Source: a virus (Duplodnaviria; Caudoviricetes). From it: DNA of 64,000 nucleotides. How positions within the stretch are numbered: position 1 is the stretch's first letter; the number at the start of each line of letters is the position of its first letter. Both the position numbers and the translations under genes were made by a program. Positions 35,658 to 60,851 of this stretch are shown in pieces. Under the pieces are notes generated by a model. The model made no database searches. It worked only from the letters and a program-made list of their open reading frames with translations, and had not been told where the DNA came from. Location: IMG/VR virus record IMGVR_UViG_3300034061_004620; one strand, 5' to 3'.

Positions 35658-36163
35658 TTTGTACAATATTTGCAACGGACCAAGTGGGCACATTTGGTAA
35701 CCGTGGCACGTTGCCATGGTCTGTTGATCCCGAAGACATGGCGTGGTTTCGAGAACACACTCAAAATCAAGTCGTGGTAATGGGCAGGCGTACTTGGGAT
35801 GATCCTAAAATGCGTAAACCATTGCCCGACCGTATAAACTGTGTAATTAGTAACAAGCCCATCGATGGATATCCGTCTGTTCGAAGATTATCCGGAGACT
35901 ATAAAAATCAAATACGCGATTTACAATCGTTGTTTCCTAAAAAGAACATTTTTATATTAGGTGGACCAGAAATAATAATGGATTGTAAAAATCTAATAGA
36001 CTATGCATATGTAACTCATAGAAAGGGTGCTGCTTTTTCTGATACCAGAATTGATATGCGAGCATTTATGATTGGTATGCGTATCACAAGTAGTAGACCA
36101 AGCGCAGATAAAATGTTAAACTTTAGTGTATACAAAAATGTAGACATTTTTAGACCTTTTTAA
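35654..36163 (+). CDS. folA: Dihydrofolate reductase
   Basis: GNRGTLPW, EDMAWFR, VVMGRRTW, PLPDRIN, ILGG. Confidence 0.9.
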   Translation: MICTIFATDQVGTFGNRGTLPWSVDPEDMAWFREHTQNQVVVMGRRTWDDPKMRKPLPDRINCVISNKPIDGYPSVRRLSGDYKNQIRDLQSLFPKKNIFILGGPEIIMDCKNLIDYAYVTHRKGAAFSDTRIDMRAFMIGMRITSSRPSADKMLNFSVYKNVDIFRPF

Positions 36164-43826: not shown

Positions 43827-44232
43827 ACTTTTTCAAAAAATCAATCCCGGCAGTGTCTCGATAACTTTGACTGTAATAGACATCGGTTATCCCGCTTTGA
43901 TAAATTAATTTAGCACATTCCAAACAGGGACTGTGAGTAACAAACAAACTGGCGCCTTCTCCGCTTTCATTTGATCGTGCCAGTTTTGCGATTGCATTGG
44001 TTTCGGCATGCAAGACTTCAGGCTTTGTCGTAAGTCCTACTATTTCTCCATTGGGCCACTTACATTCGTCTTCACAGTCGTTGTCCCATCCCGCTGGCAT
44101 ACCGTTATAGCCAATACTAATTATTCTATCGTGTTTGGCAATGATACAACCTACCTTCAATCTGCGAGCATGACTAAGAGCTGCAAAAGTCTGAGCAGTT
44201 TGCATAAACGCACGTTTAAATTTCTCTTTCAT
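43789..44232 (-). CDS. dCMP deaminase
   Basis: GYNG, HAETNAI, SPCLEC. Confidence 0.92.
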   Translation of the reverse strand: MKEKFKRAFMQTAQTFAALSHARRLKVGCIIAKHDRIISIGYNGMPAGWDNDCEDECKWPNGEIVGLTTKPEVLHAETNAIAKLARSNESGEGASLFVTHSPCLECAKLIYQSGITDVYYSQSYRDTAGIDFLKKSNVLIVQLPLED

Positions 44233-44804
44233 TCCGCACCCATTTGCTTTCTAATAGCAGTGGCCGATATTGCCTGCGTGGCATCATCAAAGGTTTCTTG
44301 TTCAATCAAATAGCCAACATCGCGACCATATGTTATATTCACAATGTTAGGTACTACAATAATTTCGTACATACCTTTATATTCTGGATCTAAATCTGCA
44401 CGAATATAATTTTTAACTTGTTCAAGATCGAATGGATTACTATGATTCCAGCCTTGGCAATCTCTAATCATAATACATACTTGTCCAGTTTTCTTTATTG
44501 CACGGTCAAATAACGCACGATGCCCGGCGTGCCAAGGTTGCCAACGGCCTAACATTTGCACTGTGGGTTTACGCCAATCAAATATTGGCGTATTTGTTAT
44601 TTTAGCTGTATTGTTCATAATTGAGAGATATCCTTCACAATATACATTCCATTTTTCTATATTATTTTCTATAGTCACTTTATCTTTAACAGGCACCTGG
44701 ATATCTAAATGTTCAACCAAGTATTCAGTTTCATTTTCGAATACACGCCATACTTGGCCACTGTTGTTATGCTGATGATTAAATCTTATGTGATATTTGT
44801 TCAT
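44229..44804 (-). CDS. HxGH nucleotidyltransferase fused to an unknown N-terminal domain
   Basis: LGRWQPWHAGH, NPF, YGRDVG, ISATAIR. Confidence 0.75.
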   Translation of the reverse strand: MNKYHIRFNHQHNNSGQVWRVFENETEYLVEHLDIQVPVKDKVTIENNIEKWNVYCEGYLSIMNNTAKITNTPIFDWRKPTVQMLGRWQPWHAGHRALFDRAIKKTGQVCIMIRDCQGWNHSNPFDLEQVKNYIRADLDPEYKGMYEIIVVPNIVNITYGRDVGYLIEQETFDDATQAISATAIRKQMGAE

Positions 44805-45198
44805 AGATAGTTTTTGCCCATTTACCTGCGTCTTGTTCAGTTACTCTGATATCATATTTGTCGGGAGCCACAAATATTTGATTTGTATCTTTGTATCTAC
44901 CTTCTGTAATTGTATCTACCCAAATTAAAAAATGTGGGTCGTATATATCTCGCATTTCTTTAAGCGGACATACAAAGTCAGCTATTATAAAATCACGATT
45001 AGATGTGTCTGCAATTTCTCGCATTCTTTTACTTTGTCGTAGTCTACCCGCTTCACTGAAATCCCAATCATTGAATTTCCTACGTATTTCATCAGCATTT
45101 AACCATAATGCATCAGGAGAAAAATAATTTAATAAATTTATAGCAAGGGTGGTTTTACCTGCGCCTGGCAGACCCATTATAAGTATACGTTTTGTCAT
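44779..45198 (-). CDS. Adenylyl-sulfate kinase-like P-loop kinase (short)
   Basis: MGLPGAGKT, LNADEIR, DFS..GR, FVCP. Confidence 0.75.
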   Translation of the reverse strand: MTKRILIMGLPGAGKTTLAINLLNYFSPDALWLNADEIRRKFNDWDFSEAGRLRQSKRMREIADTSNRDFIIADFVCPLKEMRDIYDPHFLIWVDTITEGRYKDTNQIFVAPDKYDIRVTEQDAGKWAKTIYEQISHKI

Positions 45199-46676
45199 GA
45201 AAATACCTTCACGTTGTATTTACTTTCAAATCTATCCGCATCTACTCGATCGTTTACTATAGGCTCACCCTTAATATTTAAACTTGTATTAAGCAACATA
45301 GGGCAATCCGTTAAAACAAACCATTTTTCTAACAGTTCTCGGATTCCTGAACCATCTCGCGGTACCGTCTGTACTCGACTGGTCCCATCAACATGGCAGA
45401 TAGCAGGAAAACGGTTAGGAAACTTACAACGAGCGACTGACTGCATATAGCGACTATTAGTCCACCCAGGGCTGAAATCAAAGTACTGATCAGCCATCTC
45501 TTCCAATATGACCGGGGCGAAAGGTCTAAATTTTTGTCTTCTTTTGATTTCATTTACTCTATCCTTTATGTTGGGTCCTCTTGGATCTGCTAATAAACTT
45601 CTATTCCCCAAAGCACGTGGACCAAACTCAGCACGACCATTAGCAACACCACAAATACCGTCAGATAGTAAACTATCAAGTATGGATGTAACGGGATATG
45701 CGCCCGGAATATTGTGACCAAGATAAGCATTGACCCAATTAACACGCCGCCCATATTTAAGTGCGGCAGCACCAAGGCTGCTACCAGCATCACCAGGATT
45801 AGGCATAATCCAAATGTTTTCAAAATACTCTCCAAGATTTCTATTAGCCAAACAGTTTAATGCAACGCCGCCCATGTACACGAGATTAGTACTCCAGTTA
45901 AAATCTCTTGCGCGACGCATTACATTATAAATTAAATTTTCTACAGTCTTTTGTGCAGCAGCAGCTATATCAGCATCGTGTATATCTTGCATAAATGTGC
46001 GGTCTGCCCCGGCATGTAAATTGTGCTTAAACGTCACATTCCATTCGTTATTGATTAATGCATCTTGCATAGATGCAGCATGTCCTGTTCTTCCGTACGC
46101 TGACATTCCCATTAGAATATATTCGTCTTCGTTGGGCTTAAGACCAACTCTTTGTGTCATGGCAGAATAAAACAAGCCAATACTGTGAGGATATTGTTGC
46201 GACCATAATTTTTTATATTGTGCATAACCACGTCTATCATATTCTGCACCATATATACTGATAGTATCCCATTCTCCTATAGCATCAATAACAACCACTG
46301 TGGCACGATCATACGTACTGGTTTGAAATCCGGCTGCTGCATGACTGAGATGATGATTATGAGAACTATAACTGGGAATGTGTGCCCATCCTCCAAACTG
46401 TTCTGTTAAGATTTTCTTGGTAGATAGTTGATTCCACTCTATCCCTTCGCCGCTATATAACCTACGTAATTGCTTCTTCCATGGAGATTCATAATATGCA
46501 ACATGATGAATAGGAAAGTAGTCCATCACATCATCCATTAATGTGCGACAGATGTTTGAGTCGTTCTTCGACTTGCTATAGCGTTCGCTATGAGCAGCAA
46601 ATAGTATATCGCCTTGTGTATTAATTACACTAACTGCGGCGTCATGAAAGCCAGCTGATATTCCTAATATATTCAT
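45195..46676 (-). CDS. Carbamoyltransferase (CmcH/NodU/TobZ family)
   Basis: HDAA, HHLSHAA, GGVALNC, EFGPRALGNRS, FRPFAP, LNTSLNIKGEP; start at 46676. Confidence 0.93.
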   Translation of the reverse strand: MNILGISAGFHDAAVSVINTQGDILFAAHSERYSKSKNDSNICRTLMDDVMDYFPIHHVAYYESPWKKQLRRLYSGEGIEWNQLSTKKILTEQFGGWAHIPSYSSHNHHLSHAAAGFQTSTYDRATVVVIDAIGEWDTISIYGAEYDRRGYAQYKKLWSQQYPHSIGLFYSAMTQRVGLKPNEDEYILMGMSAYGRTGHAASMQDALINNEWNVTFKHNLHAGADRTFMQDIHDADIAAAAQKTVENLIYNVMRRARDFNWSTNLVYMGGVALNCLANRNLGEYFENIWIMPNPGDAGSSLGAAALKYGRRVNWVNAYLGHNIPGAYPVTSILDSLLSDGICGVANGRAEFGPRALGNRSLLADPRGPNIKDRVNEIKRRQKFRPFAPVILEEMADQYFDFSPGWTNSRYMQSVARCKFPNRFPAICHVDGTSRVQTVPRDGSGIRELLEKWFVLTDCPMLLNTSLNIKGEPIVNDRVDADRFESKYNVKVFS

Positions 46677-47295
46677 TGATATGTTCTGCTGTTTGTTGAT
46701 GACCAAGTTCTAATGGATGCCCTCTTGGACCCTTAAGACAATCGCCCATCCAATCCACCATTGCTTCATCGGGCCATCCTATAAAATACTGTGTATCAAT
46801 TTGTTTAATTAAATCATTGTTGCGTTCGTCGGTTCGTCTTAGGTCTTGATGATTTCCAAATACATCAAACATCAAATAAGGTTTGTTATTAAGTTTTAAA
46901 TATGATTGTACAAGTACAATGTTTAACAAGTATTGTCTATATAGATAATCATCATTATGGTGTCTACTATAATAATCAGTTACATTTGCTCGCCATGGAT
47001 ATTGATGTTTAAATGGTACATTAATTCTCCCGGGCCATGTATCAAATATATCATATTCGTCGGCTATTTCAATTCTATCAAAATGACTCCATGCTACAAT
47101 AACTGCATCAAAGTTATTTGATTCTTCTACGACTGTTCTAACCATGTGCGTATTGCCACGTCCTGGTTTACCTAAGTTAGTAAGTGTAGAATCAAGTGCA
47201 GCAGCTACTAATGCCGGCCATGCTGTATCCGCTGGGTTATCTAATTCGTCACCGTAGGTGAAACTATCGCCTACAGTTAATAATCTTTTTTTCAT
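46642..47295 (-). CDS. SGNH/GDSL-like protein
   Basis: VGDSFTYG, NLGKPGRGN, GHPLELGH. Confidence 0.65.
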   Translation of the reverse strand: MKKRLLTVGDSFTYGDELDNPADTAWPALVAAALDSTLTNLGKPGRGNTHMVRTVVEESNNFDAVIVAWSHFDRIEIADEYDIFDTWPGRINVPFKHQYPWRANVTDYYSRHHNDDYLYRQYLLNIVLVQSYLKLNNKPYLMFDVFGNHQDLRRTDERNNDLIKQIDTQYFIGWPDEAMVDWMGDCLKGPRGHPLELGHQQTAEHINEYIRNISWLS

Positions 47296-47393
47296 TTATA
47301 GATAAATGGATCTCGTTTACGTAATTCACGTAATTTTCTTCGATAACGTATTTCTAATACAATTCTATTCCAAATGTTTTTTAACCATGTCAT
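47292..47393 (-). CDS. 33-aa basic peptide
   Basis: MTWLKNIWNRIVLEIRYRRKLRELRKRDPFIYK; ATGA coupling to the next gene. Translated by hand. Confidence 0.55.
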   Translation of the reverse strand: MTWLKNIWNRIVLEIRYRRKLRELRKRDPFIYK

Positions 47394-48162
47394 TGAATTT
47401 CTCCTTGAGTAAATCTGCTGCGTCTATATGTGCTTGTTCAAGAGGGTGAGTTGTTCCTATTGGGTATTTGTTTTCAAGTGCCCATTGATAAAATCCTCTT
47501 GGAGTCTGTGTTTCATTGGGGTTAATTCCAGCCGGAAACCAAAACCAAGATTCTTGATCTTGAATTATTTGTCTATAAAGGCTTTGAATTGTTTCGCTAC
47601 TGTTTTTAACTGTTACACTATGTAAGAAATTATTATCTGCACACGTAAACAGATATCTCACACCATTCGTTTTTAGATAATTTTGAAGGTAAACAATTTC
47701 CTTTAAAGTCGAGTATACTTCCCAGTATTCCCCTGCTCCTACATGCTTGAAAAATAACGACGCAAACGTATAAATGCCGGAAAGTTTAGCACGATTAAGA
47801 GTGTCATGATGATCTTTTAGTATCTGAGCATCTTGGTTCACAAATTTTTTTTCAACCGACTGTTTATCCTCTATAGTCCACGGAGTTATAGAATACCAAT
47901 CTCTTGTAATCTGTCCGGTATCGTATGTGAATTTAAATTCATACCTGCCAGGAAATGTCCAACAAACAAAAACAAATAGTTCCTTGCCTAAATGTTTTTC
48001 AACAGCGTCAATAGTTCTTCTGGCGATGCCATCATTCCCAATTCCTGGCCACGCTATGCATTCATAATGATACTGGTCACTTAATAAAGCTGCAAAAGTG
48101 TTTTTTTGAGACTGTAATTCACTTCCGTAAATAAAGCTATCACCGGCTGCTACTATAATCAT
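47365..48162 (-). CDS. SGNH/GDSL-like protein
   Basis: AGDSFIYG, PGIGND, THPLEQAH. Confidence 0.65.
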   Translation of the reverse strand: MIIVAAGDSFIYGSELQSQKNTFAALLSDQYHYECIAWPGIGNDGIARRTIDAVEKHLGKELFVFVCWTFPGRYEFKFTYDTGQITRDWYSITPWTIEDKQSVEKKFVNQDAQILKDHHDTLNRAKLSGIYTFASLFFKHVGAGEYWEVYSTLKEIVYLQNYLKTNGVRYLFTCADNNFLHSVTVKNSSETIQSLYRQIIQDQESWFWFPAGINPNETQTPRGFYQWALENKYPIGTTHPLEQAHIDAADLLKEKFNDMVKKHLE

Positions 48163-49294
48163 ATCCTGGCTTCATCATATCAATTTGCATTTGTTTGTAA
48201 TTGTAATCACTCCAACAATAATCATAGGTATTTGAAATACCATTAACTTCAATTTTGTAAATGTCTAAATGATTACTTAATATTTGTTGCACGGTAGCTT
48301 CATGTAATGTTCCAAAACCTGTGCTAAGATTAACCTGTCCTACAGGTAGGTATCCTAAACTTAAATTTGGATCATTAATTTCTTTGTTATTTGTTTGTAA
48401 CCAAGCATAAAAATCATTCATTTGTTTGTTGTGCCATTCATGGGCGCCGTTATACACAACACTTTTCCCCCATTCAACATCAAATTCTCCACTAAAATAT
48501 TTTAGTTCTGTTATAGCTTCACACACAGTATCAGTCAACTGCGGTGCACATTCATCTCTAAATACTTCAAATAATGTTTTACCAATTTGTGTCCAATGCA
48601 TATATACTCCGCCAAATACACGGTCGTACCCATTGGTAATAAAACCTTGCTTATGTTCATTGGTTAGTGTATAACGTTCGGCGTGTAAAAAAGTGGTGAT
48701 TTGACTTGGACGTATCCACTCCGCAGCAGTTGCTTGTTTACGTTGACTAAGACAGAGATTCTCAATTTCATGGCATAAATTGTTTAGTTGTCGTATAGCA
48801 TATTTTGTGGTATAATCAGCATACTTGTAATAAGAACTTAAATTTTCAACTGTTCCTTGCAATATTTCAAAATAATTATGAAGTCTATTCATGACCTCGT
48901 GTTTTATGCTCAAACCTAAATTAGATTCATCCCATCCAATTGGATATTCGTCGCCGAATCTAATTGAATCAGGAACATAAAAATCGTCAATGACAAAAGG
49001 TTGTAATCCCATGGTTTCCCAAACTTTTGTTCTGTTAAACACGTTGATCCGATATACCGCATCATTTAACTCTTTACACAAATAATTTAAATTTCTGGGA
49101 GTATGGGGGAATCCCATAAAACAAAAATTTTTTTCAATTAAACGCTTTTGCACAAGTTCTTTTTGCAAAGCTTGTGCCCAATCTTGTGCTAACTGGGTAT
49201 CGTTTAGTTCTATATCGTAATCAATTTGATCGCTTTTTATTAAAGGATTACGTAAAACTACTTTAACCGATTGAATTCCACCACTCATAAACAT
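48140..49294 (-). CDS. Hypothetical protein
   Basis: 384-aa ORF; no motif recognised. Confidence 0.7.
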   Translation of the reverse strand: MFMSGGIQSVKVVLRNPLIKSDQIDYDIELNDTQLAQDWAQALQKELVQKRLIEKNFCFMGFPHTPRNLNYLCKELNDAVYRINVFNRTKVWETMGLQPFVIDDFYVPDSIRFGDEYPIGWDESNLGLSIKHEVMNRLHNYFEILQGTVENLSSYYKYADYTTKYAIRQLNNLCHEIENLCLSQRKQATAAEWIRPSQITTFLHAERYTLTNEHKQGFITNGYDRVFGGVYMHWTQIGKTLFEVFRDECAPQLTDTVCEAITELKYFSGEFDVEWGKSVVYNGAHEWHNKQMNDFYAWLQTNNKEINDPNLSLGYLPVGQVNLSTGFGTLHEATVQQILSNHLDIYKIEVNGISNTYDYCWSDYNYKQMQIDMMKPGYDYSSSR

Positions 49295-50558
49295 CCGCTC
49301 TCTTTGAAAGTATTTCGTCCATAGTTGTAGACTGTGTACGAATAGACTCTAATTGTAACACACGAGCTTTACCTTTTGCAACTCCTTTGAGATAAGCATC
49401 TAATCCATATTGTTCCAAAAAGGTAGGGCGTGTTTTTAACTGAACTAAGATATCCTTTAATGGTCCGGCTACTCCGGCGTTTAATATTTCATCTACCCAG
49501 GCATCTAAAATTGATCTTGGTAGGGATAAAGGCGACATAACTATGTCTGGTGTAAAACTAAAGACAACCTTAGCAAGGATGTCAACGCCCAAATCTTTAG
49601 CTAACTGCTGTATATTTAATACCTCAAACATACCAGGTAAGGTAAGTGTGAAGTCTAATCTCATTTGTCTCCGGTGTTTAGCGATTGCAACTCCTGCCTT
49701 AAAGTTTTCAAGCCATGCTTGATAATCGAGGCCTGTTCTGATATATTCTCCAATCGCTCCTGTGCCGTCGATGCTGGCACAAATTTGCCAATCACGTAAA
49801 TAAGCGAGTACATCTTTATAAAGATTACAACCTCTATAACTAACGCGGCTAAGATTAGTATTGTATCGAGCATAAACACGTGGTCCGTCTCCCAGTTCTA
49901 TAATACGCTGCATGTACCGCCAATGTTGTTCGTACATTAACGGTTCTCCCCCCACCCAATAAACTTCTTCTACACGGTGGTCCTCAACTGCTGCTGCAAA
50001 CTCGGCTTCAACTTGATTAGTCTGGAAATGTTCAATTTGTTTTTTGATTTCAGGGTTCATCCAATTGTTTTTTGGATTGGACCAATCGATCATATCATGT
50101 TGTCTTTGTTCGCTTTCCCACGAACTTGACAACATGTCGCCACACATACGGCATTTAAAGTTACAAAGATTACTAAATCTGTAATCCCAACTAACAGGTT
50201 GCATGGTTGTATAACCTGTTTCGTCGGTACTTTCAAGCACTTGCAAATACTTATGTTGGAATAAATTGTTGAAATAACTACGGTAAACGTCAGTGTTAAG
50301 CAATTTATTATTACACACTTCGCACTCAGGTAATGTTTCTCCGGCCATCATACGGCGACGTACACTACGCATATGATCACTGTTCCAATGCTGTTCAAGT
50401 GTTATAGGAATATAACTACCTGTCCCGGCATTGCTGTCAATATACTGCTGAAAATTGGTTGCGGATTCGCGGCTTGCACAACAAAGTCTTCTTTCAGTTT
50501 GTGGACTTAGATATGTGTGAGTCCACGGTGCCATACATAGTGTGCTTGGTTTATTCAT
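49263..50558 (-). CDS. Radical SAM with N-terminal SPASM/twitch-like domain
   Basis: CMAPW..LCC..CEVC; CNFKCRMC; GGEP. Confidence 0.9.
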   Translation of the reverse strand: MNKPSTLCMAPWTHTYLSPQTERRLCCASRESATNFQQYIDSNAGTGSYIPITLEQHWNSDHMRSVRRRMMAGETLPECEVCNNKLLNTDVYRSYFNNLFQHKYLQVLESTDETGYTTMQPVSWDYRFSNLCNFKCRMCGDMLSSSWESEQRQHDMIDWSNPKNNWMNPEIKKQIEHFQTNQVEAEFAAAVEDHRVEEVYWVGGEPLMYEQHWRYMQRIIELGDGPRVYARYNTNLSRVSYRGCNLYKDVLAYLRDWQICASIDGTGAIGEYIRTGLDYQAWLENFKAGVAIAKHRRQMRLDFTLTLPGMFEVLNIQQLAKDLGVDILAKVVFSFTPDIVMSPLSLPRSILDAWVDEILNAGVAGPLKDILVQLKTRPTFLEQYGLDAYLKGVAKGKARVLQLESIRTQSTTMDEILSKRADVYEWWNSIG

Positions 50559-51222
50559 TCAAATATTTTTCCATTGCTGTAAAAATTTCTTCTTTAGAGT
50601 AACACCATGGCTCAATTGATTGGTTAATTGTTTCTTTTTCGTTAAGAGTTAAATGTGGAAAAAAGTTGTTAACTATTTCCCTATTTGAAATTGGTTCAGA
50701 AATCAAATTTCTCTCAGTAACATCTGATGTAATAGAAAAATTAATATCTTCAGCAAGGTTCTCAAGATTGTACCATTGTATTCTTGCGTTTAAATTAATT
50801 TGATCCAAATACTGACTATATTTTAAGTCATATAAAACATTTTTTGTGATAGTAGAATGAATTAAAGAACTTAATCGTAAAATATTTGTTTTGAAGATGC
50901 CACTTAACTTTTGCTCTAACCACAATCTATTACTACCGTATGGTAAATGTGGTCTTAGTACACTATCTATTGTTCCTATTATTACTAATCTTTTAATTTT
51001 TGTTTGACTGATATTACTATATAACCAACGCACATTATCATAATCATTTTTAGCATCTGTGTTTGCTTTAATTCTATTTCCGCTTGGTGCAGCCAAATAT
51101 ACTATATCAAATTCATAATTATTGATACTTGTAATATTTGAAGAATTGAATTCATGTGTGGGGTTAACAATCTTATTAAGATAGTTTCCTATTAGACCAT
51201 TTGAGCCAACAACCGCTATCAT
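50551..51222 (-). CDS. Short NAD-dependent epimerase/reductase-like protein
   Basis: VVGSNGLIG, YLAAP, YGSNR, LRLSSL. Confidence 0.7.
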   Translation of the reverse strand: MIAVVGSNGLIGNYLNKIVNPTHEFNSSNITSINNYEFDIVYLAAPSGNRIKANTDAKNDYDNVRWLYSNISQTKIKRLVIIGTIDSVLRPHLPYGSNRLWLEQKLSGIFKTNILRLSSLIHSTITKNVLYDLKYSQYLDQINLNARIQWYNLENLAEDINFSITSDVTERNLISEPISNREIVNNFFPHLTLNEKETINQSIEPWCYSKEEIFTAMEKYLNE

Positions 51223-52172
51223 TCTAAATAATTTAAAATCTCGTCAATAATTTCTGATTTAATTTTTTGCTTAACCAGATCCTTATCAAAAAAACGAGCA
51301 TGATTATAAGCAAGTTTTTGTTTGGTTAAAGTATCTTCAAATATGTAATTTTTGTTTTCAAATTCATTGGTAAGTCTGGTAATTTCCGAAACTATCTTGT
51401 CCAATCTTAAATTTTCATTTTCTATTAGATCGTATGATTCATCTATTAGGTGGTCAAAGGTTTCGAAGCCCTGCTCATGCAAGTACTTTAGAGTATCTTT
51501 AGATCCCCAAACTATAAAAGGATGTTGATATGCAATTGGTTTGAATATTTTTTCAGATATAAATGGAGGCGATGTGACAAAGGTTTCGACTACTACACTG
51601 AATTCAGTGGCATCGTACCAATTTGGATTAAAATATCTTTGCCAATCTCCGTTAGCATAATCTACATCATCTTTTATTTTGATGCCGTTTTGAACATAAC
51701 TGTACATTGCATTTTTTAAGGAATTCTGCAACCTAAGGTATATTTGATCTCTATGACTACGTTTTAAATGCATTAACATCAGGAATGCCTTGGCATGGTT
51801 TCTATTGGGTACGTATTTGTGATATTTCAAATGCCTATACCAAAGACTTTCATTGTACCATATCCAGTTTTTATTTCTAACCGATAGTCTGTCTGTGACC
51901 TCGCTTGTTTTTGAAATGTCATTATCCCAAAAACAATCTACTACTAATTTATATCCTTTATTGACATAAGGCACATACCATGTAGCGTTAGTATTAAAAA
52001 AATCTGTTACACAAACAGTGTCACTTGGAGAATGGTTTACAGTTTCGTGCTCGTAAATTATGTTACAATAATCACTAATTATGTCTACAAACCAGTCAGA
52101 GCAAAAACTGTTAAGATCATTATTTGAAACTAACAAATTAATTTTGTTTGTCATATCCCATTGCCTTTGCAA
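51219..52172 (-). CDS. Glycosyltransferase-like protein, paralog family A
   Basis: SVVVET..SEKIFKPIAYQHPF..LKYLHEQGFETF. Confidence 0.6.
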   Translation of the reverse strand: MQRQWDMTNKINLLVSNNDLNSFCSDWFVDIISDYCNIIYEHETVNHSPSDTVCVTDFFNTNATWYVPYVNKGYKLVVDCFWDNDISKTSEVTDRLSVRNKNWIWYNESLWYRHLKYHKYVPNRNHAKAFLMLMHLKRSHRDQIYLRLQNSLKNAMYSYVQNGIKIKDDVDYANGDWQRYFNPNWYDATEFSVVVETFVTSPPFISEKIFKPIAYQHPFIVWGSKDTLKYLHEQGFETFDHLIDESYDLIENENLRLDKIVSEITRLTNEFENKNYIFEDTLTKQKLAYNHARFFDKDLVKQKIKSEIIDEILNYLE

Positions 52173-53358
52173 TCTCTTGATGAGTGTTGTAAAATGATTG
52201 TTGCCTATATGTATCAGTCTGCTTCATCTTGAATAAAAATTCTTCGCCATCTGATCCGTTACCCTGTTCGATAAATCGTATAATACGTAAAATTTCTGCA
52301 CGATGCTTGGGATTGATAAATGTGCCGGTACGCAATTTTTCTATAACAACTTCTTTGGCGATTGGGGTAAGACTATCAATACACATATGTTTTGGATCAT
52401 GTAACATGTTAAAATAATGATCGTTGAACTTTTGAGTATTCACCCAATTACACAAGTCTTCTAAATAGAAAACATTCTGTATATTGATTGTCATACATAC
52501 TTGTGTGGTAATCTTGTTCGGAAATTGATCGCGTAACTCATGAAATTTCTGAATATTTGTTACAACTTCATTCCAATAAGCACCATACCGTTCATATTCG
52601 AATCTTTCTCCGATATTGTCGATGCTAAATGCAATGTCTACACGTTTGAAGTGGCTCCACAGTTCGTGTGCATTGGGCCACTGTGTTCCATTTGTATTAT
52701 AATGGATATCAATATTTTTGGCATAACCTTGATCCACTGCGTATTGCAACAGATCAAAATGCTCTTGAATCATAAATGGTTCACCACCAGTGAATTCAAA
52801 ATATTTAATATTAGGAAGTAATTGACGCAAATTATCCCAAAAAGTTTGAGTCTTTCTTGGCCATGCTCCTTTTTGTAAAAATTTATATGCTAAATGTTCT
52901 TTTTTATTTGTTAATTCCGGAATATAATTAATCTCTTCTTGTGCCCATTTACTACTGGACCAAGACCCACATATTCTGCATTTAAGATTACATATATTAC
53001 CTAACTTTAAATCTACAAACCAAAGTTGATCAGGTGTATCATTTTCATAATCTACTTTGTCTGCTAATTCTTTTAATCGTATTTTGCTATATATACGTTT
53101 GCTTGCACGACCGGCATCTTCCTCCTGCCAGCAACGATTGCACGTTTCTGGTTTTTCTCCTGCGCGAAATCGTTGCCGCAAATTCTGCATGTAAGAACTA
53201 TTATAAATAGTTTCTAAATTTGTTTGATTTAAATCGTATTTGACTCCATTGTTGTCGCAGATTTCTTCTATCGCCAAACAACAGGGTCTGGCAGTCCCAA
53301 TTGGACTTGTCTCTATACTAATCCACGGCAACATACAAATTGTTTTAGGTAAAGTCAT
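52138..53358 (-). CDS. Radical SAM with N-terminal SPASM/twitch-like domain
   Basis: CMLPW..PCC..CNRC; CNLKCRIC; GGEP. Confidence 0.9.
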   Translation of the reverse strand: MTLPKTICMLPWISIETSPIGTARPCCLAIEEICDNNGVKYDLNQTNLETIYNSSYMQNLRQRFRAGEKPETCNRCWQEEDAGRASKRIYSKIRLKELADKVDYENDTPDQLWFVDLKLGNICNLKCRICGSWSSSKWAQEEINYIPELTNKKEHLAYKFLQKGAWPRKTQTFWDNLRQLLPNIKYFEFTGGEPFMIQEHFDLLQYAVDQGYAKNIDIHYNTNGTQWPNAHELWSHFKRVDIAFSIDNIGERFEYERYGAYWNEVVTNIQKFHELRDQFPNKITTQVCMTINIQNVFYLEDLCNWVNTQKFNDHYFNMLHDPKHMCIDSLTPIAKEVVIEKLRTGTFINPKHRAEILRIIRFIEQGNGSDGEEFLFKMKQTDTYRQQSFYNTHQEIAKAMGYDKQN

Positions 53359-54674
53359 TTAATTGTAATCAATTCAGGAAATGTGTTCCAAAAATTTTCA
53401 TTTCTTACGTCATCCAGTTTTTTCACTTCTTCTCTGAATCTATCAAGTAATTTGCTTTGGTTGTTTGCACGTAAAAAATTAAGTGCGCTCTTAAATCCAT
53501 TTGTGGCTCTTTGTAATTTATCTTGTGGCTCGAGCCATGCTATATGTTCTTCATAGGCCGGAATAACAACATTTTTTTTAAAATCTTCAGGCAATATATC
53601 AATACGATACCAGTCTGGACTTTGGCAAATATTTACATTAAAATCTTTTGCATCGATAAGACCCATTTGTACCCATTCTTTATGAAACGCCAATACATGC
53701 AATACATTCATAGCACTAATTGTTGCACTGATATAAAAATCTACATGAGGAACTTCTTGCATCATTCTATAGCGATTTTGTTCAACTTGTGTCCAATTGG
53801 TACCTTTCCGCATTAGTTCGGCACGAGCACCACTTGCATCAAGACTCGCTCCTACACTGACATTTGTAAAATTCTTCCAATAGTCAAATACATGTTTATC
53901 TTTAAATCTTAGTTCGCTAAAATTAGTATTGTATTGAATCCTAATATCTGTTTTTTTATGTTCGATCAATTTCTCTAACATGAAGTAATGTTCCTTCATT
54001 ATTAGAGGTTCGCCGCCGGCGAAATAAACTTGCTCAAGGTATGGAATATGTGGGAGCATTTGTTCAAGCATGGCATCTTCATCGCCGGCGGTATATTCAA
54101 CTCGCGCCATGTCTCTGCCAAGCACGTCGGGTTTACGATTATAAAGTTTGACATGATCATTGTACCAGTTGCTACTAAATATTGGACCGCAACTGCGGCA
54201 ACTAAAATTACATAGATTGCTAAATCTAACATCCCAATATCTTAGATTAAATTTAGGATTAGTTCCGTCTTCTAATGTAGCATCAACTTCTGCCACGTGA
54301 TGACCATAATTTCTATTTGCATCATGTCTCATACTGAAAAAACCGTTATCCTCTTGTTCGTAACATTTTGTGCATTCTTTACATGGCCGATCTTCGAGCA
54401 TGTTTTTACGCATTGTACGATAAGCGTCTTGATTCCAAACCTGCTCCATTGTATGTTTACGAAGGTCTCCCACAGGATGCCAATAATCAGCTAAACAGCA
54501 AGGATAAGCACGACCATCAGGAAAAGCATGCATGTGAACCCATGGCATCATACAAAACGTTTTACTCTCGGTTAATTTACTCCATTGATCCGGAGACAGT
54601 TTGTCTTTTTCAATGAAATAAGGAGCTCTTTCGTTATATACATACCCTTTATTGTAAAATGCTTTTACAGTCAT
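53355..54674 (-). CDS. Radical SAM with N-terminal SPASM/twitch-like domain
   Basis: CMMPW..PCC..CTKC; CNFSCRSC; GGEP. Confidence 0.9.
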   Translation of the reverse strand: MTVKAFYNKGYVYNERAPYFIEKDKLSPDQWSKLTESKTFCMMPWVHMHAFPDGRAYPCCLADYWHPVGDLRKHTMEQVWNQDAYRTMRKNMLEDRPCKECTKCYEQEDNGFFSMRHDANRNYGHHVAEVDATLEDGTNPKFNLRYWDVRFSNLCNFSCRSCGPIFSSNWYNDHVKLYNRKPDVLGRDMARVEYTAGDEDAMLEQMLPHIPYLEQVYFAGGEPLIMKEHYFMLEKLIEHKKTDIRIQYNTNFSELRFKDKHVFDYWKNFTNVSVGASLDASGARAELMRKGTNWTQVEQNRYRMMQEVPHVDFYISATISAMNVLHVLAFHKEWVQMGLIDAKDFNVNICQSPDWYRIDILPEDFKKNVVIPAYEEHIAWLEPQDKLQRATNGFKSALNFLRANNQSKLLDRFREEVKKLDDVRNENFWNTFPELITIK

Positions 54675-56026
54675 AAACTATTGTACCAATCTGATAAATC
54701 TTGAAAAGTTGACACAAAATCCTTGTCTCTACGGATATCATATTGGGAATAAAATTTTTTAAAATCTTTTTGTAAAATTTCTTGTTCGGCTGCACCCAAA
54801 TGCGGAGTTTTTACTACGTCTAAATAATCTATTAGTCTTTGTAACTGATTTAATTCCATTTCGTGAATTAATTCATTTTTTTGATTTTGCATCATCCAAT
54901 CTTGCAATTTATTTTTATATTTTGTTCTGAGTTCATCTGGTAAAACCAATGGACTCTGAAAACTGGGGAATCTTAATATATTTAATGTGAAAAATGGATA
55001 ATTTTTTCCATAACACATTTTCCACTGAACAATTTGATCTAAAAAATCAGTCAAACTTTCTAAACTTAGAGCATTTATTGTACACATAATGTGTAAGCCA
55101 CGTAACTTGTAGTTGGCAAAATTATCACATATCAGATCTATACTATTAATCCAATCGTTCCAAACCAATCCGTCTCTAATATACTCTGCATGAGCTCCGA
55201 CACTTTCATTACTTGTGTATAAGTCAATGGGTGCGTCCACACTTTGAAATAAACGATCGATATCAACTTGTGTTCCTAAATTAGAATTAATCGCAAGTCG
55301 TGTTTGCGATCGTCCTTTGTTGGCCTTAAACCAATCAAGTAATTGCCAGGTGTATCCTGACATTAGAGGCTCTCCACCGGTAATCCTTAATTCTGTTAGG
55401 GTTTTATGGAGGTCTGATTCCCACCATTGGAAGAAGGCATCGATGTAGGGGTTATTTTCACCAAATTTAAAAAGCTGCGAACTGTCATGGCTATGAGTAA
55501 AATGGTTCCTGCCGTCAGACACCAGATCCATGTAGGGTCCGTTATTATTGATGTCTTTAACCCAAGTACTGCTGAATGCAGGATTGCAATAAGAGCAAGC
55601 AAACTGACAAGTACGATCAAAACTGATTTCAAGAGTGCGAAGATTGACATCTTCTGTAAAATTTGATTTGAATGCATTATCTAAATCCTCATCTGTAAAC
55701 AACACAGTTTTGTACACACGATCGCTTATGTTATCACGACCGATGTCCTCAATTTTCCAACAATATTCACAACCGGCCGGCCTTTCGCCTTGTTGCATCT
55801 GACGGCGTTCTTCTTTTTTCTTTGCAGTATTGTGTAATGTCCGTGGATTAATTTTGGCTTCTTCTATATCAACTTTGTGTGGCAATGGGTGATGACAACT
55901 TGTAGTCATACCTGACCCTAACCAAATAGTGGCATTATACCATTTTGCGCCGCAGAATGATTCAGACTTGATATCAATTACTCTGCGTCTATATTCTAAA
56001 TCTGTTTCGTTATTAATTTTGGGCAT
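54671..56026 (-). CDS. Radical SAM with N-terminal SPASM/twitch-like domain
   Basis: CGAKW..SCHHP..CEYC; CQFACSYC; GGEP. Confidence 0.9.
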   Translation of the reverse strand: MPKINNETDLEYRRRVIDIKSESFCGAKWYNATIWLGSGMTTSCHHPLPHKVDIEEAKINPRTLHNTAKKKEERRQMQQGERPAGCEYCWKIEDIGRDNISDRVYKTVLFTDEDLDNAFKSNFTEDVNLRTLEISFDRTCQFACSYCNPAFSSTWVKDINNNGPYMDLVSDGRNHFTHSHDSSQLFKFGENNPYIDAFFQWWESDLHKTLTELRITGGEPLMSGYTWQLLDWFKANKGRSQTRLAINSNLGTQVDIDRLFQSVDAPIDLYTSNESVGAHAEYIRDGLVWNDWINSIDLICDNFANYKLRGLHIMCTINALSLESLTDFLDQIVQWKMCYGKNYPFFTLNILRFPSFQSPLVLPDELRTKYKNKLQDWMMQNQKNELIHEMELNQLQRLIDYLDVVKTPHLGAAEQEILQKDFKKFYSQYDIRRDKDFVSTFQDLSDWYNSL

Positions 56027-57395
56027 GATATCGGCATTCTTCCCAAAATTCTTTCATTTCCGGGAATGTATTTAAAAAGTTTGTATCTCTTCGTTTGTCG
56101 TGCTCGTTAAAGAATCTAAAAAAATCAGCACGTTGCATTATAACATATTCTTGATCTAATTTGCTACCTTCTTGCATCCAATCTACCACTCGTTGCATTC
56201 TTTGCACTTCGTAATCTTTAAATCCTTGAAATGGTTTATCTTCAGTTTCTAAATTGGCCTGCATCCAATTGACCACATCTTGTAATCGTTTTGCATATAC
56301 AGGTGGTAATATCTGTAAGCTTTGCCAGGTAGGTTGTCTGAGTATGGGTGTATCAAACCAAACTCGTTGATATGTTGTACTGTGTAACCTTCGTAAAGCA
56401 AGAACAGTTTCTAATTGTCTTTTTAAACCTAACACACTTAGATTATTCATAGTAATAATGAATGTTAGACTGTTACGATAAGGAATGTGTCTTAAGAAAT
56501 AATCAACTCTTGCTAAAACTCTTTTATATTCCATTCCATGTCTGATATATTCGGCATGTTCGGCTATTCCGGTATCCAAACTTACATACTGCATGAAATG
56601 TTCAATATTTGTGTTACATAATTGGCTTACATAGCCAAAGTATTGTTCCCATAACTTTTCATCTACACTAAAGTTACTGGTCACATCAATATGCAAATCA
56701 GGTTTAGGAAAGGCCAACACATAGTCAAACACTCGATATGTATTACGATCCATTAGGGGTTCGCCGCCGGTCATTCTAAAATGTTTTAGTCGTGGATATA
56801 AACTGGGCCACCACTCCCAGAATGCATCAACATAAGGGTTATCTTCTCGAACAGGAATAGGTCGTCGGCGACCGGTAAAATGGGAAACATCATTATGAGT
56901 AGTGCTGGTGGGATATCCTCCATAACGTCTAATTTCATCATCCCAGCTACTACTAAACTGAGGACTACAATAGGAACACTTGAGATTGCAAGCATGATTA
57001 AAATTGACTTCCACATAGGAAGGAATAGCATCTTCATCGCCTGATGAGTTCGTGATGGTTTCAAAATGCTCACTTGCCCACGGTTCACCTGATCGGTAAT
57101 GTCTATCACTTAAATTCCCCAAATCTTCTTGTGTCCAACAATAACTGCATTCCTGTGGACGTTCGTTGCGTAGCATAATTTTACGCTGTTCTTTTTTGTA
57201 TGGTGTGTTATGTAACGCACCGGGATTGTCTTTTAATAGTGTGGCGTCTATTTCATGTAATGGTGGATGATAGCAACTGTTTGTTAGACCTGTGGGTAAG
57301 TGTAGACTTACTTGTTGCCATTTAGCAAGGCAAAGACTATTACCAAGTCTGTCTTTCATATTTTCAGCAAGATTTAAAAAATCACTTTTAACCAT
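56013..57395 (-). CDS. Radical SAM with N-terminal SPASM/twitch-like domain
   Basis: CLAKW..SCYHP..CSYC; CNLKCSYC; GGEP. Confidence 0.9.
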   Translation of the reverse strand: MVKSDFLNLAENMKDRLGNSLCLAKWQQVSLHLPTGLTNSCYHPPLHEIDATLLKDNPGALHNTPYKKEQRKIMLRNERPQECSYCWTQEDLGNLSDRHYRSGEPWASEHFETITNSSGDEDAIPSYVEVNFNHACNLKCSYCSPQFSSSWDDEIRRYGGYPTSTTHNDVSHFTGRRRPIPVREDNPYVDAFWEWWPSLYPRLKHFRMTGGEPLMDRNTYRVFDYVLAFPKPDLHIDVTSNFSVDEKLWEQYFGYVSQLCNTNIEHFMQYVSLDTGIAEHAEYIRHGMEYKRVLARVDYFLRHIPYRNSLTFIITMNNLSVLGLKRQLETVLALRRLHSTTYQRVWFDTPILRQPTWQSLQILPPVYAKRLQDVVNWMQANLETEDKPFQGFKDYEVQRMQRVVDWMQEGSKLDQEYVIMQRADFFRFFNEHDKRRDTNFLNTFPEMKEFWEECRYHAQN

Positions 57396-57837
57396 GTTGC
57401 CATTCTAAACGATTAACATCAAATTGATTCCCTAACTCTAACATATATCCTAATGGCGAAGACCCAGTTAGATGCATAGTAATACAACCGTTAAATCCCC
57501 AATAATTTTCATGTGTAATGGTTTTATTTCCTTCCCGCTGACAATAAAATAATTTGTCAATCATATCAATATGAATTGCAAATCCATTAATTAAAATTCC
57601 CACGATTTCTACGGCTTTATCAGCAACAACCTTACCTTTATGAAAAACTGTATCACCATTGTTTTTATTAGAAGAATAAATGGTAATTACTGAAGGCCAA
57701 TTTACTGTAAAACTTATTTGCCTATGATCGTTATCAAAACTATCCTCTTCAAAGACCAATATATCTTTATCATAGATTTTAAGAGCCATTGATCCGTTAT
57801 TATTTTTTATCTTGGTTAAAAATGTTATATTAACCAT
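57388..57837 (-). CDS. Hypothetical beta-rich protein coupled to the B12 radical SAM
   Basis: 149 aa; ends NGFAIH..YWGFNG. Confidence 0.55.
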   Translation of the reverse strand: MVNITFLTKIKNNNGSMALKIYDKDILVFEEDSFDNDHRQISFTVNWPSVITIYSSNKNNGDTVFHKGKVVADKAVEIVGILINGFAIHIDMIDKLFYCQREGNKTITHENYWGFNGCITMHLTGSSPLGYMLELGNQFDVNRLEWQHG

Positions 57838-59245
57838 ATTGTGTTATTTCCTGCTGAGTAGATTTAAAAGTTAGACCGTCGCCTGCACCATGTGAAAAAT
57901 TTAATTGTGAAAGAATAGTTGTTAATGACTTGTGATAATTTAATCTATCTTGTGTAGATACGTTATTAACGTTTGAAATCCAGTAAGTTGGAATTTCACC
58001 TTGTGTTATATTATAATCTTTTTTCTTTCTATCTAATTCGGTGTTTGGCAAAATTGAAGCGAGACTGAATACTACATTCTTTACAGGAAATCGAGCATAC
58101 TGTTTTCTATCTATAAACCATTTTTTTGTGAATTCAAAATCTTCTTTTGTTTCTGTTGGATATCCAACAATTAACAATAGGTTTAAAGGTATTGAAAATT
58201 CTTTAGCCATTTCTAAATGATAATCAATGTCATCGTTAGTGAAGTTTTTTCCTAAATTTATTCTAACTTTTTCTATGACGCTTTCTATTCCTAACAATAG
58301 ACTCCCATTGCTTTCTTTAATTTTTTGCCATAATGTTCTTGGATGTTGATTTTGACCTCTAACTATAAAATAACCGTCCCATGAGATTACATTTGTAGCT
58401 TTGGAATTGTATTCACAAATATAATCTAACAGTTTATTAAACTCTTTCATATTTCCGTTAGTAAGACTATTATAAAAGAAAAAATTTGAAATTTTATATT
58501 TTTCAATTTGGTGCAACATTTCGGAAAAAATATTACTTGCAGATCGATATTGGTATTTTTTCCAATGTTCGATAATATCACAAAATTCGCATGCCCTCAC
58601 ACAGCCTCTACTATCACAAATTGGGATTCCACATTCTTTATATTGTTGAAAATTATAATTATCAAAATTAGGAAATGGAAGATTGTTTAAATCAGTTATT
58701 TGTTGCCAATTTGCAGAGTTAATTCCCGGAAACGACATATTATTCTTCAAATATTGAACTAAACTATATTCCCCATCACCATTTATATAATCATCAATTA
58801 AATTTCTTTCCTTTAGTAGCTCTGCATAACCAATACTTGATTCTGCAATGAAATTTTTAATACCACTGCCCCCAATAATAATTTTTACATTTGGCGCACG
58901 AAATCTAAGATGATAGCATAACCAGATTGTAAAAAATTGATTATCCTGACATAATAAAGATAATGCAATAATTTTTGGGTTAAATGAAATTATCCTATTT
59001 GTACAAAATTCAATAAAAGATTCAATTGCTGCATAATTTTCGCTTGGAATTTCTTGAAATAATAAAAAGTTTTCTAATATTTTCGTGTCTTTACTGTGTC
59101 TAATATACAAATTCGCTTCATTATTAAGATCTATTGCTACAGCAGAAAAACCAGCCGCAATAACCGATGATTTTAAAACTGCCGGTGCTAACACCGGCCT
59201 GGAACTAAAAGTTCCGGCGGTTGAACATATCAAGACGTCAATCAT
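57830..59245 (-). CDS. B12-binding-domain (class B-like) radical SAM protein
   Basis: IIIGGSG, NGDGE, DSRGCVRACEFCD, GIES, IVGYPTET. Confidence 0.85.
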   Translation of the reverse strand: MIDVLICSTAGTFSSRPVLAPAVLKSSVIAAGFSAVAIDLNNEANLYIRHSKDTKILENFLLFQEIPSENYAAIESFIEFCTNRIISFNPKIIALSLLCQDNQFFTIWLCYHLRFRAPNVKIIIGGSGIKNFIAESSIGYAELLKERNLIDDYINGDGEYSLVQYLKNNMSFPGINSANWQQITDLNNLPFPNFDNYNFQQYKECGIPICDSRGCVRACEFCDIIEHWKKYQYRSASNIFSEMLHQIEKYKISNFFFYNSLTNGNMKEFNKLLDYICEYNSKATNVISWDGYFIVRGQNQHPRTLWQKIKESNGSLLLGIESVIEKVRINLGKNFTNDDIDYHLEMAKEFSIPLNLLLIVGYPTETKEDFEFTKKWFIDRKQYARFPVKNVVFSLASILPNTELDRKKKDYNITQGEIPTYWISNVNNVSTQDRLNYHKSLTTILSQLNFSHGAGDGLTFKSTQQEITQYG

Positions 59246-59910
59246 ACTATAAAAAAAATTAGAAATTGCTTCACTAATCCAAATTTAGCAAAGTTATTAC
59301 TTATATGCCATTGATTGCGGTCCCATACTAAAATATCTCCTAATGTATGCCGATAGTCAATGTCAATTGGCAATTTTTTTATCAAGGAAAAATTTTTATC
59401 ATGATCAAAATCAGTAAGAACTAAATTATTTTCATCCGTAGAGTTCTGCACCATTTGCTCGTAACTTGGATTAAAATCAGACCATACCTTAAAGGTAATT
59501 GTACGAAAATTGTCCCCTTCAACTAACGGAATCAGAACTGCTTTGTTATGCCTTATAGTTTTTGATCCAAAGCTCATACAATCGGGATAAAGATCTTGTT
59601 GCTTACGACTGTCTACATGTAAAATATAAGGTTTTTTACTTGATTTATATGATCCGGTATCAAATTCGTGATCATTTCCAATTATTTCATTTAATATTGG
59701 ATTCATTGTTTTGTAAATAAAATTTTCTGGTATATGGTATTCAAGATTTTTATTTACAATTCCCACTTCTGCGTGTTGTTCAGGTTGGTTTTTGTAAAAT
59801 TCTTTTATTGACTCTATTGTCTTTAGCTCAAGTATATTTTTGTAAACTTTACTTTTATGATTGTTCATTATAATCCTATTTTGGTTATATTTTTTAGAAA
59901 ATATTACCAA
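59242..59910 (-). CDS. Putative 2OG-Fe(II) oxygenase-like protein
   Basis: LHVDS (HxD) and GDILVWDRNQWHIS (distal His). Confidence 0.55.
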   Translation of the reverse strand: MVIFSKKYNQNRIIMNNHKSKVYKNILELKTIESIKEFYKNQPEQHAEVGIVNKNLEYHIPENFIYKTMNPILNEIIGNDHEFDTGSYKSSKKPYILHVDSRKQQDLYPDCMSFGSKTIRHNKAVLIPLVEGDNFRTITFKVWSDFNPSYEQMVQNSTDENNLVLTDFDHDKNFSLIKKLPIDIDYRHTLGDILVWDRNQWHISNNFAKFGLVKQFLIFFIV

Positions 59911-60851
59911 CCTTCTATTCTACGTATGACATCAATTTCTGTCATCATTATTTCACTATTACGCTGCCCAATACTGTAGTGATGTTTAAAAAATTCACTT
60001 TGCTTGGGTGTGTAAGTTACTATAGGTAAACCCAATCTGTTTGTCAATGCACTTTCTATTCTTTCGCATCCTTCCTGGGGATCTTCAGTGCTAAAACTGG
60101 TCCATAGTTTTTCAAGCATATCAAAGTCCTGTACATGATGATGATCCCATCCTTCAAGCATAATCATGTATGTGCCTAATCTTGCTCCATACATTGCCCA
60201 GTAACCATTTTCAACGTCTGCACCCACTGAGTGCCAAATACATAAATGATCATAGTTTCTTTTATTCACCCCATCTTCAAATTCTTGTAAAGTGGGCTTG
60301 TGTCCTCTGTTAAGACACATCTTTACACCTTCACGGAATCCGGCTCGCCATGCTTGTTTGGCACTGCCATTGGGATATGTTGTCGAATAACAATTATGCA
60401 TAGCCACATACTTTGGGTCAAAACAAAATTCAACAGCAGTTTCTTCATCGCCCAGGCTGGCCTCATGAGTACGCATACGATTTACAAAGTCCTTGGTCCA
60501 ACAACTAACACCACCGTTGCCATACCTTAACCCATTTATAACATTACGTGCTTTCCATCTAAAAACGTGGTCATGATTCCGTTCATCCAGCGATAATTGT
60601 AAGTTAAAAAATTCTGGATCCGGAATATTGTCTCCATCAACGAGAACAAAACGGTCTGTGTCTGACGCAGCGGCGGCTGCTTTATGCGCTGCATCAGACC
60701 CTTTAACTCCATCAACTCTCTTTGCCCATGGCACCATGTTTTGAATTTGGATCCAAAATTCTTCTTTTTTAGGTTCATCATAGGTTAAGAAAATACAATC
60801 TAAATCTGCTATGTCAACAATTTTAGCCGCTGTAGAATTCTGTGCTGTCAT
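59904..60851 (-). CDS. GT-A-like protein, paralog family B
   Basis: FLTYDEP, RVDGVKGSDAAH, LVDGD (DxD), YGNGG, AWRAGFREG. Confidence 0.6.
   Translation of the reverse strand: MTAQNSTAAKIVDIADLDCIFLTYDEPKKEEFWIQIQNMVPWAKRVDGVKGSDAAHKAAAAASDTDRFVLVDGDNIPDPEFFNLQLSLDERNHDHVFRWKARNVINGLRYGNGGVSCWTKDFVNRMRTHEASLGDEETAVEFCFDPKYVAMHNCYSTTYPNGSAKQAWRAGFREGVKMCLNRGHKPTLQEFEDGVNKRNYDHLCIWHSVGADVENGYWAMYGARLGTYMIMLEGWDHHHVQDFDMLEKLWTSFSTEDPQEGCERIESALTNRLGLPIVTYTPKQSEFFKHHYSIGQRNSEIMMTEIDVIRRIEGW

Follow-up and report, generated by a model that had tools for sequence, protein, structure and literature searches.

Why would a phage carry a row of five diverged radical S-adenosylmethionine (SAM) genes, each with its auxiliary cysteine motifs ahead of the catalytic core, and what might their products do? 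We asked this of a 64,000-nucleotide stretch of viral DNA (Duplodnaviria, Caudoviricetes; IMG/VR record IMGVR_UViG_3300034061_004620), hereafter the window. Positions 49263-57395 of the window hold five minus-strand paralogous open reading frames (ORFs) of 406-460 amino acids (aa), in a row that is broken at 50551-52172 by two other ORFs. The source of the window is a T4-like jumbo phage, whose DNA polymerase shares 51% identity with that of Sinorhizobium phage Phosso and 47% with that of Atu_ph07. A megablast search of the array against GenBank phages returned zero matches, leaving it without a close DNA relative there. The 8.1-kb array does occur, near-identical, in 20 sequencing runs from 16 studies, labelled almost without exception as lake or freshwater metagenomes.

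Seven paralogs share an N-terminal cysteine module

We searched for the paralogs by tblastn across the whole window and recovered exactly seven family copies, with no eighth copy or fragment: the array of five and two solitary genes, 867-2021 and 37078-38592. These are the same seven ORFs, at the same coordinates, that an initial annotation had listed from the sequence without database searches. We refer to each by its first coordinate.

56013-57395, minus strand: N_Twi_rSAM array paralog 1, AKW..SCxH subtype, 460 aa (NF033640, 306.7 bits)
54671-56026, minus strand: N_Twi_rSAM array paralog 2, AKW..SCxH subtype, 451 aa (NF033640, 282.9 bits)
53355-54674, minus strand: N_Twi_rSAM array paralog 3, PW..CC subtype, 439 aa (NF033640, 397.9 bits; Pfam SPASM at residues 41-104, Radical_SAM at 150-298)
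52138-53358, minus strand: N_Twi_rSAM array paralog 4, PW..CC subtype, 406 aa (NF033640, 348.3 bits)
49263-50558, minus strand: N_Twi_rSAM array paralog 5, PW..CC subtype, 431 aa (NF033640, 279.3 bits)
867-2021, plus strand: solitary N_Twi_rSAM paralog, 384 aa (NF033640, 212 bits; Pfam SPASM at residues 14-75, plus Radical_SAM)
37078-38592, plus strand: solitary N_Twi_rSAM paralog, 504 aa (NF033640, 206.6 bits on residues 121-497)

An alignment of all seven agrees with the annotation's description of N-terminal cysteine motifs that precede CxxxCxxC and GGEP, with no Cys-rich C-terminus. The order is Cxx(P/K)(W/F), a second Cys, CxxC, CxxxCxxC and GGEP in every copy. The second Cys is part of CC in 867, 49263, 52138 and 53355, of SCxH in 54671 and 56013, and of a single ICP in 37078. 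The N-terminal module occupies residues ~8-105 and CxxxCxxC follows at 120-232; in four of the seven paralogs Pfam itself places SPASM before Radical_SAM. Beyond GGEP, each paralog has one to four scattered, non-conserved cysteines. CxxxCxxC and GGEP are invariant, both in the seven paralogs and in 77/77 sampled family members.

The solitary genes have surroundings of their own. A ferritin-like gene (423-863, plus strand; Pfam Ferritin, E 2.5e-17) lies directly upstream of 867; since it encodes an iron-storage protein and the phage has many Fe-S enzymes, it could be an adaptation that supplies iron. The 37078 protein has a 120-aa N-terminal extension (window 37078-37440), and its residues 1-121 have no match in Pfam, PHROGs or NCBIfam. 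A canonical thymidylate synthase gene (36164-37081), itself preceded by a dihydrofolate reductase (DHFR) gene (35654-36163), ends in an overlap with the start of 37078.

The paralogs belong to a large, catalogued family

All seven proteins matched the NCBIfam model NF033640 (N_Twi_rSAM, twitch domain-containing radical SAM protein) at 206.6-397.9 bits (E 1e-61 to 1e-119), against a curated cutoff of 170 bits. The model has 398 positions, and the matches start at position 1-2 and end at 376-398; scores of this size lie well outside what chance would give. The permuted architecture is therefore already catalogued. Model and paralogs have the same N-terminal four-Cys twitch, CxxxCxxC, GGEP and helical C-terminal part, with no structural difference between them, and the window proteins are plain members of this family. 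In our reading the array genes are functional members, as the two solitary copies probably are too.

NF033640 is a sequence catalogue entry of the 'subfamily' type, and UniProt already has close homologs of the paralogs under generic names. The family is large: a profile of 77 members retrieved ~10,000 representatives (50%-identity clusters) at E <= 1e-30, among 1.84 billion. The RadicalSAM.org paper records that some members of the SPASM/twitch megacluster bear extra conserved cysteines N-terminal to the barrel, without structures (PMC9477430). In the literature that we searched, no paper names or characterises NF033640 or any member; the chemistry of any member and an ordered phage cassette of five paralogs are both undescribed there. 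The initial annotation had allowed that the family might map to a characterised single-function enzyme, and no such enzyme maps to it. Its picture of a permuted, diversified family holds for the permutation and for the paralogs being old and diverged (18-31% pairwise identity among the seven, 20-31% among the five of the array). The family is not new, being curated as NF033640.

The N-terminal module resembles the twitch domain of BtrN

SPASM and twitch domains are described as C-terminal extensions of radical SAM enzymes (PMC9012708), and the initial annotation had read the auxiliary Cys domain here as N-terminal, in permuted order. We built a profile from the N-terminal 90 residues of 73 family members and searched the whole PDB. 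This profile matched one protein only, at E 2.3e-9: the C-terminal twitch domain of BtrN (2-deoxy-scyllo-inosamine dehydrogenase of butirosin biosynthesis; PDB 4M7S/4M7T). All four cysteines of the BtrN twitch (C / PC / CxxC), which are its cluster ligands, align with those of the module. As a single sequence, the module gave no match in the PDB; BtrN was seen by the profile alone. Judged on sequence, the N-terminal module is a true twitch domain. The BtrN match and the Pfam SPASM position uphold the permuted order, and they support the view that the family is a circular permutation of the usual core-then-twitch arrangement.

How might such a domain be used? The first Cys and the two of CxxC are fixed positions, each kept in at least 75 of the 77 family members; at one or other of the two adjacent middle positions, 76 members carry a Cys. 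The conserved auxiliary cysteines are thus four only, versus the seven of a SPASM domain with its two auxiliary clusters. Four Cys residues ligate the auxiliary cluster of BtrN, which has been proposed as electron acceptor for the two-electron oxidation of a sugar-like substrate; that of MoaA has three ligands, and its open iron binds substrate (PMC9012708). Since four auxiliary positions are kept across the family, we infer a fully ligated, BtrN-like cluster in the paralogs, and the pattern points to a role in electron transfer. The likeness to BtrN is confined to the twitch domain, which follows the core in BtrN and precedes it in the paralogs. The latter are also 130-250 aa longer, with an extra helical C-terminal region, and the BtrN core is not among the best matches of their cores.

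The core fold is shared with enzymes of several substrate classes

The high-confidence AlphaFold2 model of the 53355 protein (predicted local distance difference test [pLDDT] 94.6, predicted template modeling score [pTM] 0.91) has a beta-hairpin and helices ahead of the barrel. Its PDB matches cover the core only: BlsE (Z 13.2), CteB (12.4), anSME (12.2), SkfB (12.1), GDGT-MAS (12.0), MoaA (11.8), viperin (11.6) and DesII (11.1). No solved structure of the permuted form is among them, and matches over the full length were to predicted viral and metagenomic models only. One predicted model that matches over most of its length (template modeling [TM] score by target 0.73) is the 'MoaA/NifB/PqqE family' radical SAM protein of Vibrio phage KVP40; the BFVD matches are Q6WHP4 and I6XCF1, from phages KVP40 and phi-pp2. 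By sequence, the KVP40 protein aligns to the core of 867 only, at 25% identity. A complex prediction for the 53355 and 52138 paralogs scored 0.00; it gives no verdict and is used neither way.

BlsE, DesII, MoaA and viperin act on nucleoside- or nucleotide-linked substrates, and viperin was the best hit when the core sequence was searched against the PDB (E 2.5e-14). We therefore considered a nucleotide or DNA-linked substrate, handled by viperin-like chemistry or by phage DNA hypermodification with carbamoylation. Radical SAM enzymes and carbamoyltransferases participate in some phage DNA hypermodifications, and genes for dCMP deaminase, thymidylate synthase and DHFR lie next to parts of the system described here. 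Even so, we regard such a substrate as very improbable. The four enzymes match only residues ~122-410, none of them has an N-terminal twitch, and the paralogs miss their family models by a wide margin; for the viperin model NF038283, with an equivalog cutoff of 180 bits, they reach 18-29 bits. The window's ThyA passes the equivalog cutoff for thymidylate synthase, and the window showed no hydroxymethylase. The genes of nucleotide metabolism belong to the ordinary T4-like core set, and the loci of bacterial family members are of export and glycosyltransferase types.

The array is an old, ordered set

Orthologs of the individual array genes, one for each, follow one another in the same order on other contigs (L001, L004, L007, L008 and L010). 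Identities are 64-89% in L001 (a 338-kb contig) and L004 (38.5 kb), and 43-62% in contigs binned to metagenome-assembled genomes (MAGs) of Legionellales, Haliscomenobacter, Rickettsiales, Porticoccaceae and Flavobacterium. The related jumbo-phage contigs that carry the array come from lakes and oceans. The Haliscomenobacter contig, L008, carries both the array and a DNA polymerase 72% identical to that of the window; in the Legionellales MAG a polymerase of this 72% type lies on another contig than the array, and the remaining MAG contigs share the gene order. At least some of the MAG contigs are therefore phage. L006-L011 look like jumbo-phage contigs that were wrongly binned with bacterial MAGs, and RefSeq includes one of them.

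In a maximum-likelihood tree the array genes fell into five separate clades (support 98-100), with one gene per phage in each; hence the duplications long predate the phage lineage. The 56013 ortholog clade (support 99-100; 85-89% identity to L001/L004, 56-59% to L007/L010) and the 54671 clade (77-80% identity to L001/L004) are sisters, so that the two cysteine subtypes recognised in the initial annotation are real. The 52138 paralog has its own clade (64-66% identity to L001/L004), and 49263 sits in a long-branch clade with support of 100 (85% identity to L001/L004). The 53355 clade is nested among bacterial members; this is the array copy nearest to them, and it has more than 120 metagenome clusters at 78-99% identity. 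All five array copies have been retained.

The array is also compact. From 48140 to 59910 all neighbouring genes overlap, by 4-35 nt, and promoter and terminator scans did no better than shuffles. Two inserts in this block vary among relatives.

57388-59910, minus strand: variable insert of a 149-aa ORF, a B12-binding radical SAM enzyme (57830-59245; Pfam Radical_SAM plus weak B12-binding) and a 222-aa ORF
50551-52172, minus strand: variable insert between paralogs 4 and 5, a 223-aa ORF with an N-terminal GxxGxxG-like motif and a 317-aa ORF; no family match

The first insert is absent in L001/L004, and a relative of its B12 enzyme (31-32% identity) lies in the same block of L007/L009. The enzyme at 57830-59245 shows weak, sub-cutoff likeness to NCBIfam models of B12-binding radical SAM proteins, including many methyltransferases; the top score is 57 bits where the cutoff is 282. 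Another B12-binding radical SAM module lies at 10421-12308 (plus strand). In both modules, this one and that at 57388-59245 (minus strand), a small overlapping ORF follows the radical SAM gene, of 127 and 149 aa respectively. The second slot is filled by a different gene in relatives, of 241 aa in L001 and 464 aa in L004.

The overlapping junctions bear on whether the enzymes modify proteins. AlbA, SkfB, CteB, SuiB and anSMEcpe belong to the same SPASM/twitch branch (Z ~12), and Pfam SPASM matches the N-terminal module of the paralogs; the core is as near to anSME, SkfB, CteB and SuiB as to sugar enzymes. The block is placed behind tail-fibre-like genes in relatives (matches to Peptidase_G2 and Reelin repeats), and some bacterial members have Peptidase_S74 genes nearby. 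Tail-fibre or other virion proteins could on these grounds be epimerised, cross-linked or oxidised at Calpha or Cbeta, much as the SPASM/twitch maturases for peptides synthesized ribosomally and modified post-translationally (RiPPs) and anSME modify theirs. Several observations make this an unlikely explanation. Since all junctions overlap, no small or precursor gene is hidden inside the array, in agreement with the annotation, which had seen no precursor peptide, and the small ORFs nearby (115 and 104 aa) lack Cys- or Gly-rich cores and are not RiPP-like. The paralogs have one four-Cys auxiliary cluster motif, N-terminal, and not the two clusters of a seven-Cys SPASM domain. No RiPP recognition element (RRE) or other leader-binding domain was among the Pfam or NCBIfam domains reported, although no search aimed at the RRE was made. 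The bacterial relatives reside in polysaccharide-type loci. The evidence does not support virion proteins, which the initial annotation had offered as one possible substrate, nor does it support a peptide.

Family members recur in rows and as fusions

We sampled bacterial and phage members at 78 genome loci, 77 of which had family ORFs; the three-paralog pattern used biases this sample toward 53355- and 52138-like members. Two to six paralogs lay within 17 kb at 35 of the 77 loci. Cultured phages also carry the family: Ralstonia phage RsoM2USA has a 305-bit member (gene 202) two genes from a NodU-like gene (gene 199), and in Vibrio phages K566 and K567 three copies form a row, which in K566 are genes 0303, 0305 and 0306.

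Fusions give a second view of how the paralogs are arranged. Among the 150 best representatives, 33 were 700-1466 aa long, nearly all with two or three full modules. Several fusions followed the array order: 56013-like with 54671-like, 53355-like with 52138-like, and 52138-like with 49263-like. Because these pair adjacent types in array order, they suggest that array neighbours work together. A 950-aa double module (L087, 1153-4005) lies in a bacterial contig beside clpX/clpP and PadR, with no sugar genes near.

The gene context is of a sugar type

The genes around the array and around the 37078 paralog include the following.

59904-60851, minus strand: GT-A-like partner, 315 aa, invariant DGD at 72-74; 89-93% identity to L001/L004
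48140-49294, minus strand: conserved partner, 384 aa; orthologs of 50-58% identity after paralog 5 in L001, L004 and L007
47365-48162, minus strand: putative hydrolase-like gene; N-terminal GDS motif by eye only, no family match
46642-47295, minus strand: DUF6071/GDSL-like putative hydrolase (Pfam DUF6071, E 5e-9; Lipase_GDSL_2, E 1.5e-4)
45195-46706, minus strand: NodU/NolO-type carbamoyltransferase (phrog_1601, E 1e-92); 82-85% identity to L001/L004
44229-45198, minus strand: P-loop (APS-kinase-like) and nucleotidyltransferase-like proteins, weak matches; 83-85% orthologs in L001
38813-40878, plus strand: NAD-dependent sugar epimerase/dehydratase and DegT-type aminotransferase (Pfam Epimerase, E 1.5e-41; DegT_DnrJ_EryC1, E 1.5e-77)

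The 315-aa GT-A-like gene is the most conserved of the block and has >8000 homologs; these are all apparently viral, and the gene may be a hallmark of this phage group. The AlphaFold2 model of its product (pLDDT 83) led Foldseek to GT-A glycosyltransferases and related sugar-nucleotidyltransferases, among them hyaluronan synthase, the PBCV-1 capsid glycosyltransferase A64R, WrtF, RmlT and SunS, at E 7e-5 to 1e-3 and TM scores of only 0.3-0.4. By sequence, its Pfam GT2_3 match is weak and below cutoff, and a profile search of the PDB found no match.

The pair at 44229-45198 has weak matches to APS_kinase (E 3.5e-7), CTP_transf_like (E 1.7e-3) and NMN adenylyltransferase models (E 1e-7), and is a possible sugar-activation pair. 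The epimerase and DegT genes lie just downstream of the 37078 paralog, and both families also neighbour bacterial N_Twi_rSAM genes. The gene pair at 46642-48162 has orthologs in L001/L004. Pfam, NCBIfam and PHROGs gave no match for the 384-, 223-, 317-, 149- and 222-aa partners or for further neighbours of 277, 277, 252 and 265 aa, and for the 384-aa partner an ESM Atlas search stayed below 0.8, at noise level. A dCMP deaminase gene (43789-44232, minus strand), syntenic in L001/L004, closes the same-strand run; most probably it is a standard nucleotide gene of the T4-like kind and only a neighbour of the cassette. With its GT-A-like, carbamoyltransferase, epimerase and DegT genes, the window context is glycan-like, which agrees with the glycans among the substrates that the annotation had inferred.

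The neighbours in the sampled loci allow a second product class to be weighed. The most recurrent were UbiA-like prenyltransferases (14 loci), the Wzt ABC ATPase (10), PhyH dioxygenases (9), GT2 glycosyltransferases (9) and carbamoyltransferases (8), followed by NAD epimerases (7), DegT (6), WelO5-like oxygenases (5) and UDP-sugar dehydrogenases (4). Some of the carbamoyltransferase loci are the phage contigs themselves; L033, L043, L050, L053 and L079 are not. UbiA-like, PhyH and WelO5-like genes are the commonest neighbours in Bacteroidota, and the top Foldseek match, albeit weak, is GDGT-MAS. The product might on this basis be a lipid, an isoprenoid-linked compound or a small-molecule metabolite, with the phage copy serving host takeover. 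We give this little credence: the phage block has no UbiA, PhyH or WelO5 and instead has GT-A-like, carbamoyltransferase and, nearby, DegT and epimerase genes, and the Wzt ABC, GT2 and UDP-sugar dehydrogenase genes of the bacterial loci indicate a lipid-carried sugar polymer rather than a free lipid.

A proposed route of sugar tailoring

We hypothesize that the array carries out stepwise radical tailoring of an activated sugar or glycan, which is then carbamoylated and transferred, and we consider this reading probable. Each enzyme would cleave SAM at its CxxxCxxC cluster, and the resulting 5'-deoxyadenosyl radical would abstract a hydrogen from a sugar carbon. The four-Cys auxiliary [4Fe-4S] cluster, with no open iron site, would take or return an electron, as proposed for BtrN. 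By analogy with BtrN only, the outcome for each enzyme may be dehydrogenation, epimerisation, deoxygenation or a related rearrangement, a set that takes in the sequential oxidation or epimerisation proposed in the initial annotation. The paralogs are of old origin, each is conserved in its own right, and their order is fixed. Most likely they catalyse five distinct steps on a single activated sugar or glycan, which may be nucleotide- or lipid-linked. The NodU-type enzyme would also add a carbamoyl group to the product, and the GT-A-like protein would transfer it, probably to a phage or cell-surface structure.

A number of points weigh against this reading. The sugar assignment comes from the neighbours alone, there being no member with a known substrate, and among those neighbours the GT-A fold match is of low TM score, the kinase-like and nucleotidyltransferase-like matches are weak, and the five unmatched partners of the array belong to no recognisable family. 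The core resembles peptide-modifying SPASM enzymes at equal Z. The UbiA, PhyH and WelO5-like genes of the Bacteroidota context would fit a lipid or small-molecule product equally well. Two of the fusions were looked up, and each came from a single low-coverage contig, so that the fusion evidence is suggestive only.

A bolder form of the sugar-tailoring hypothesis, which we put forward tentatively and hold to be possible but not expected, is that the five-enzyme row is an oxygen-independent radical assembly line. Each paralog would perform a different reaction type, and together they would turn a common activated sugar into a heavily rearranged, carbamoylated sugar of an undescribed type, placed on the tail or virion or on the host envelope. 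If this is true, the family holds several new radical SAM chemistries, and the two- and three-module fusions mean that the enzymes act as a physical complex.

Phages that devote 7-20 kb to ordered sets of N_Twi_rSAM enzymes are common in lakes and oceans, and the family to which these enzymes belong, although very large, has no member for which we found an assigned reaction or a solved structure. Cultured carriers such as RsoM2USA and K566/K567 make the question experimentally addressable. Identification of the substrate would make a block of radical SAM sequence space accessible, would test whether an N-terminal twitch alters the use of the auxiliary cluster, and would reveal the surface or virion chemistry in which jumbo phages invest.

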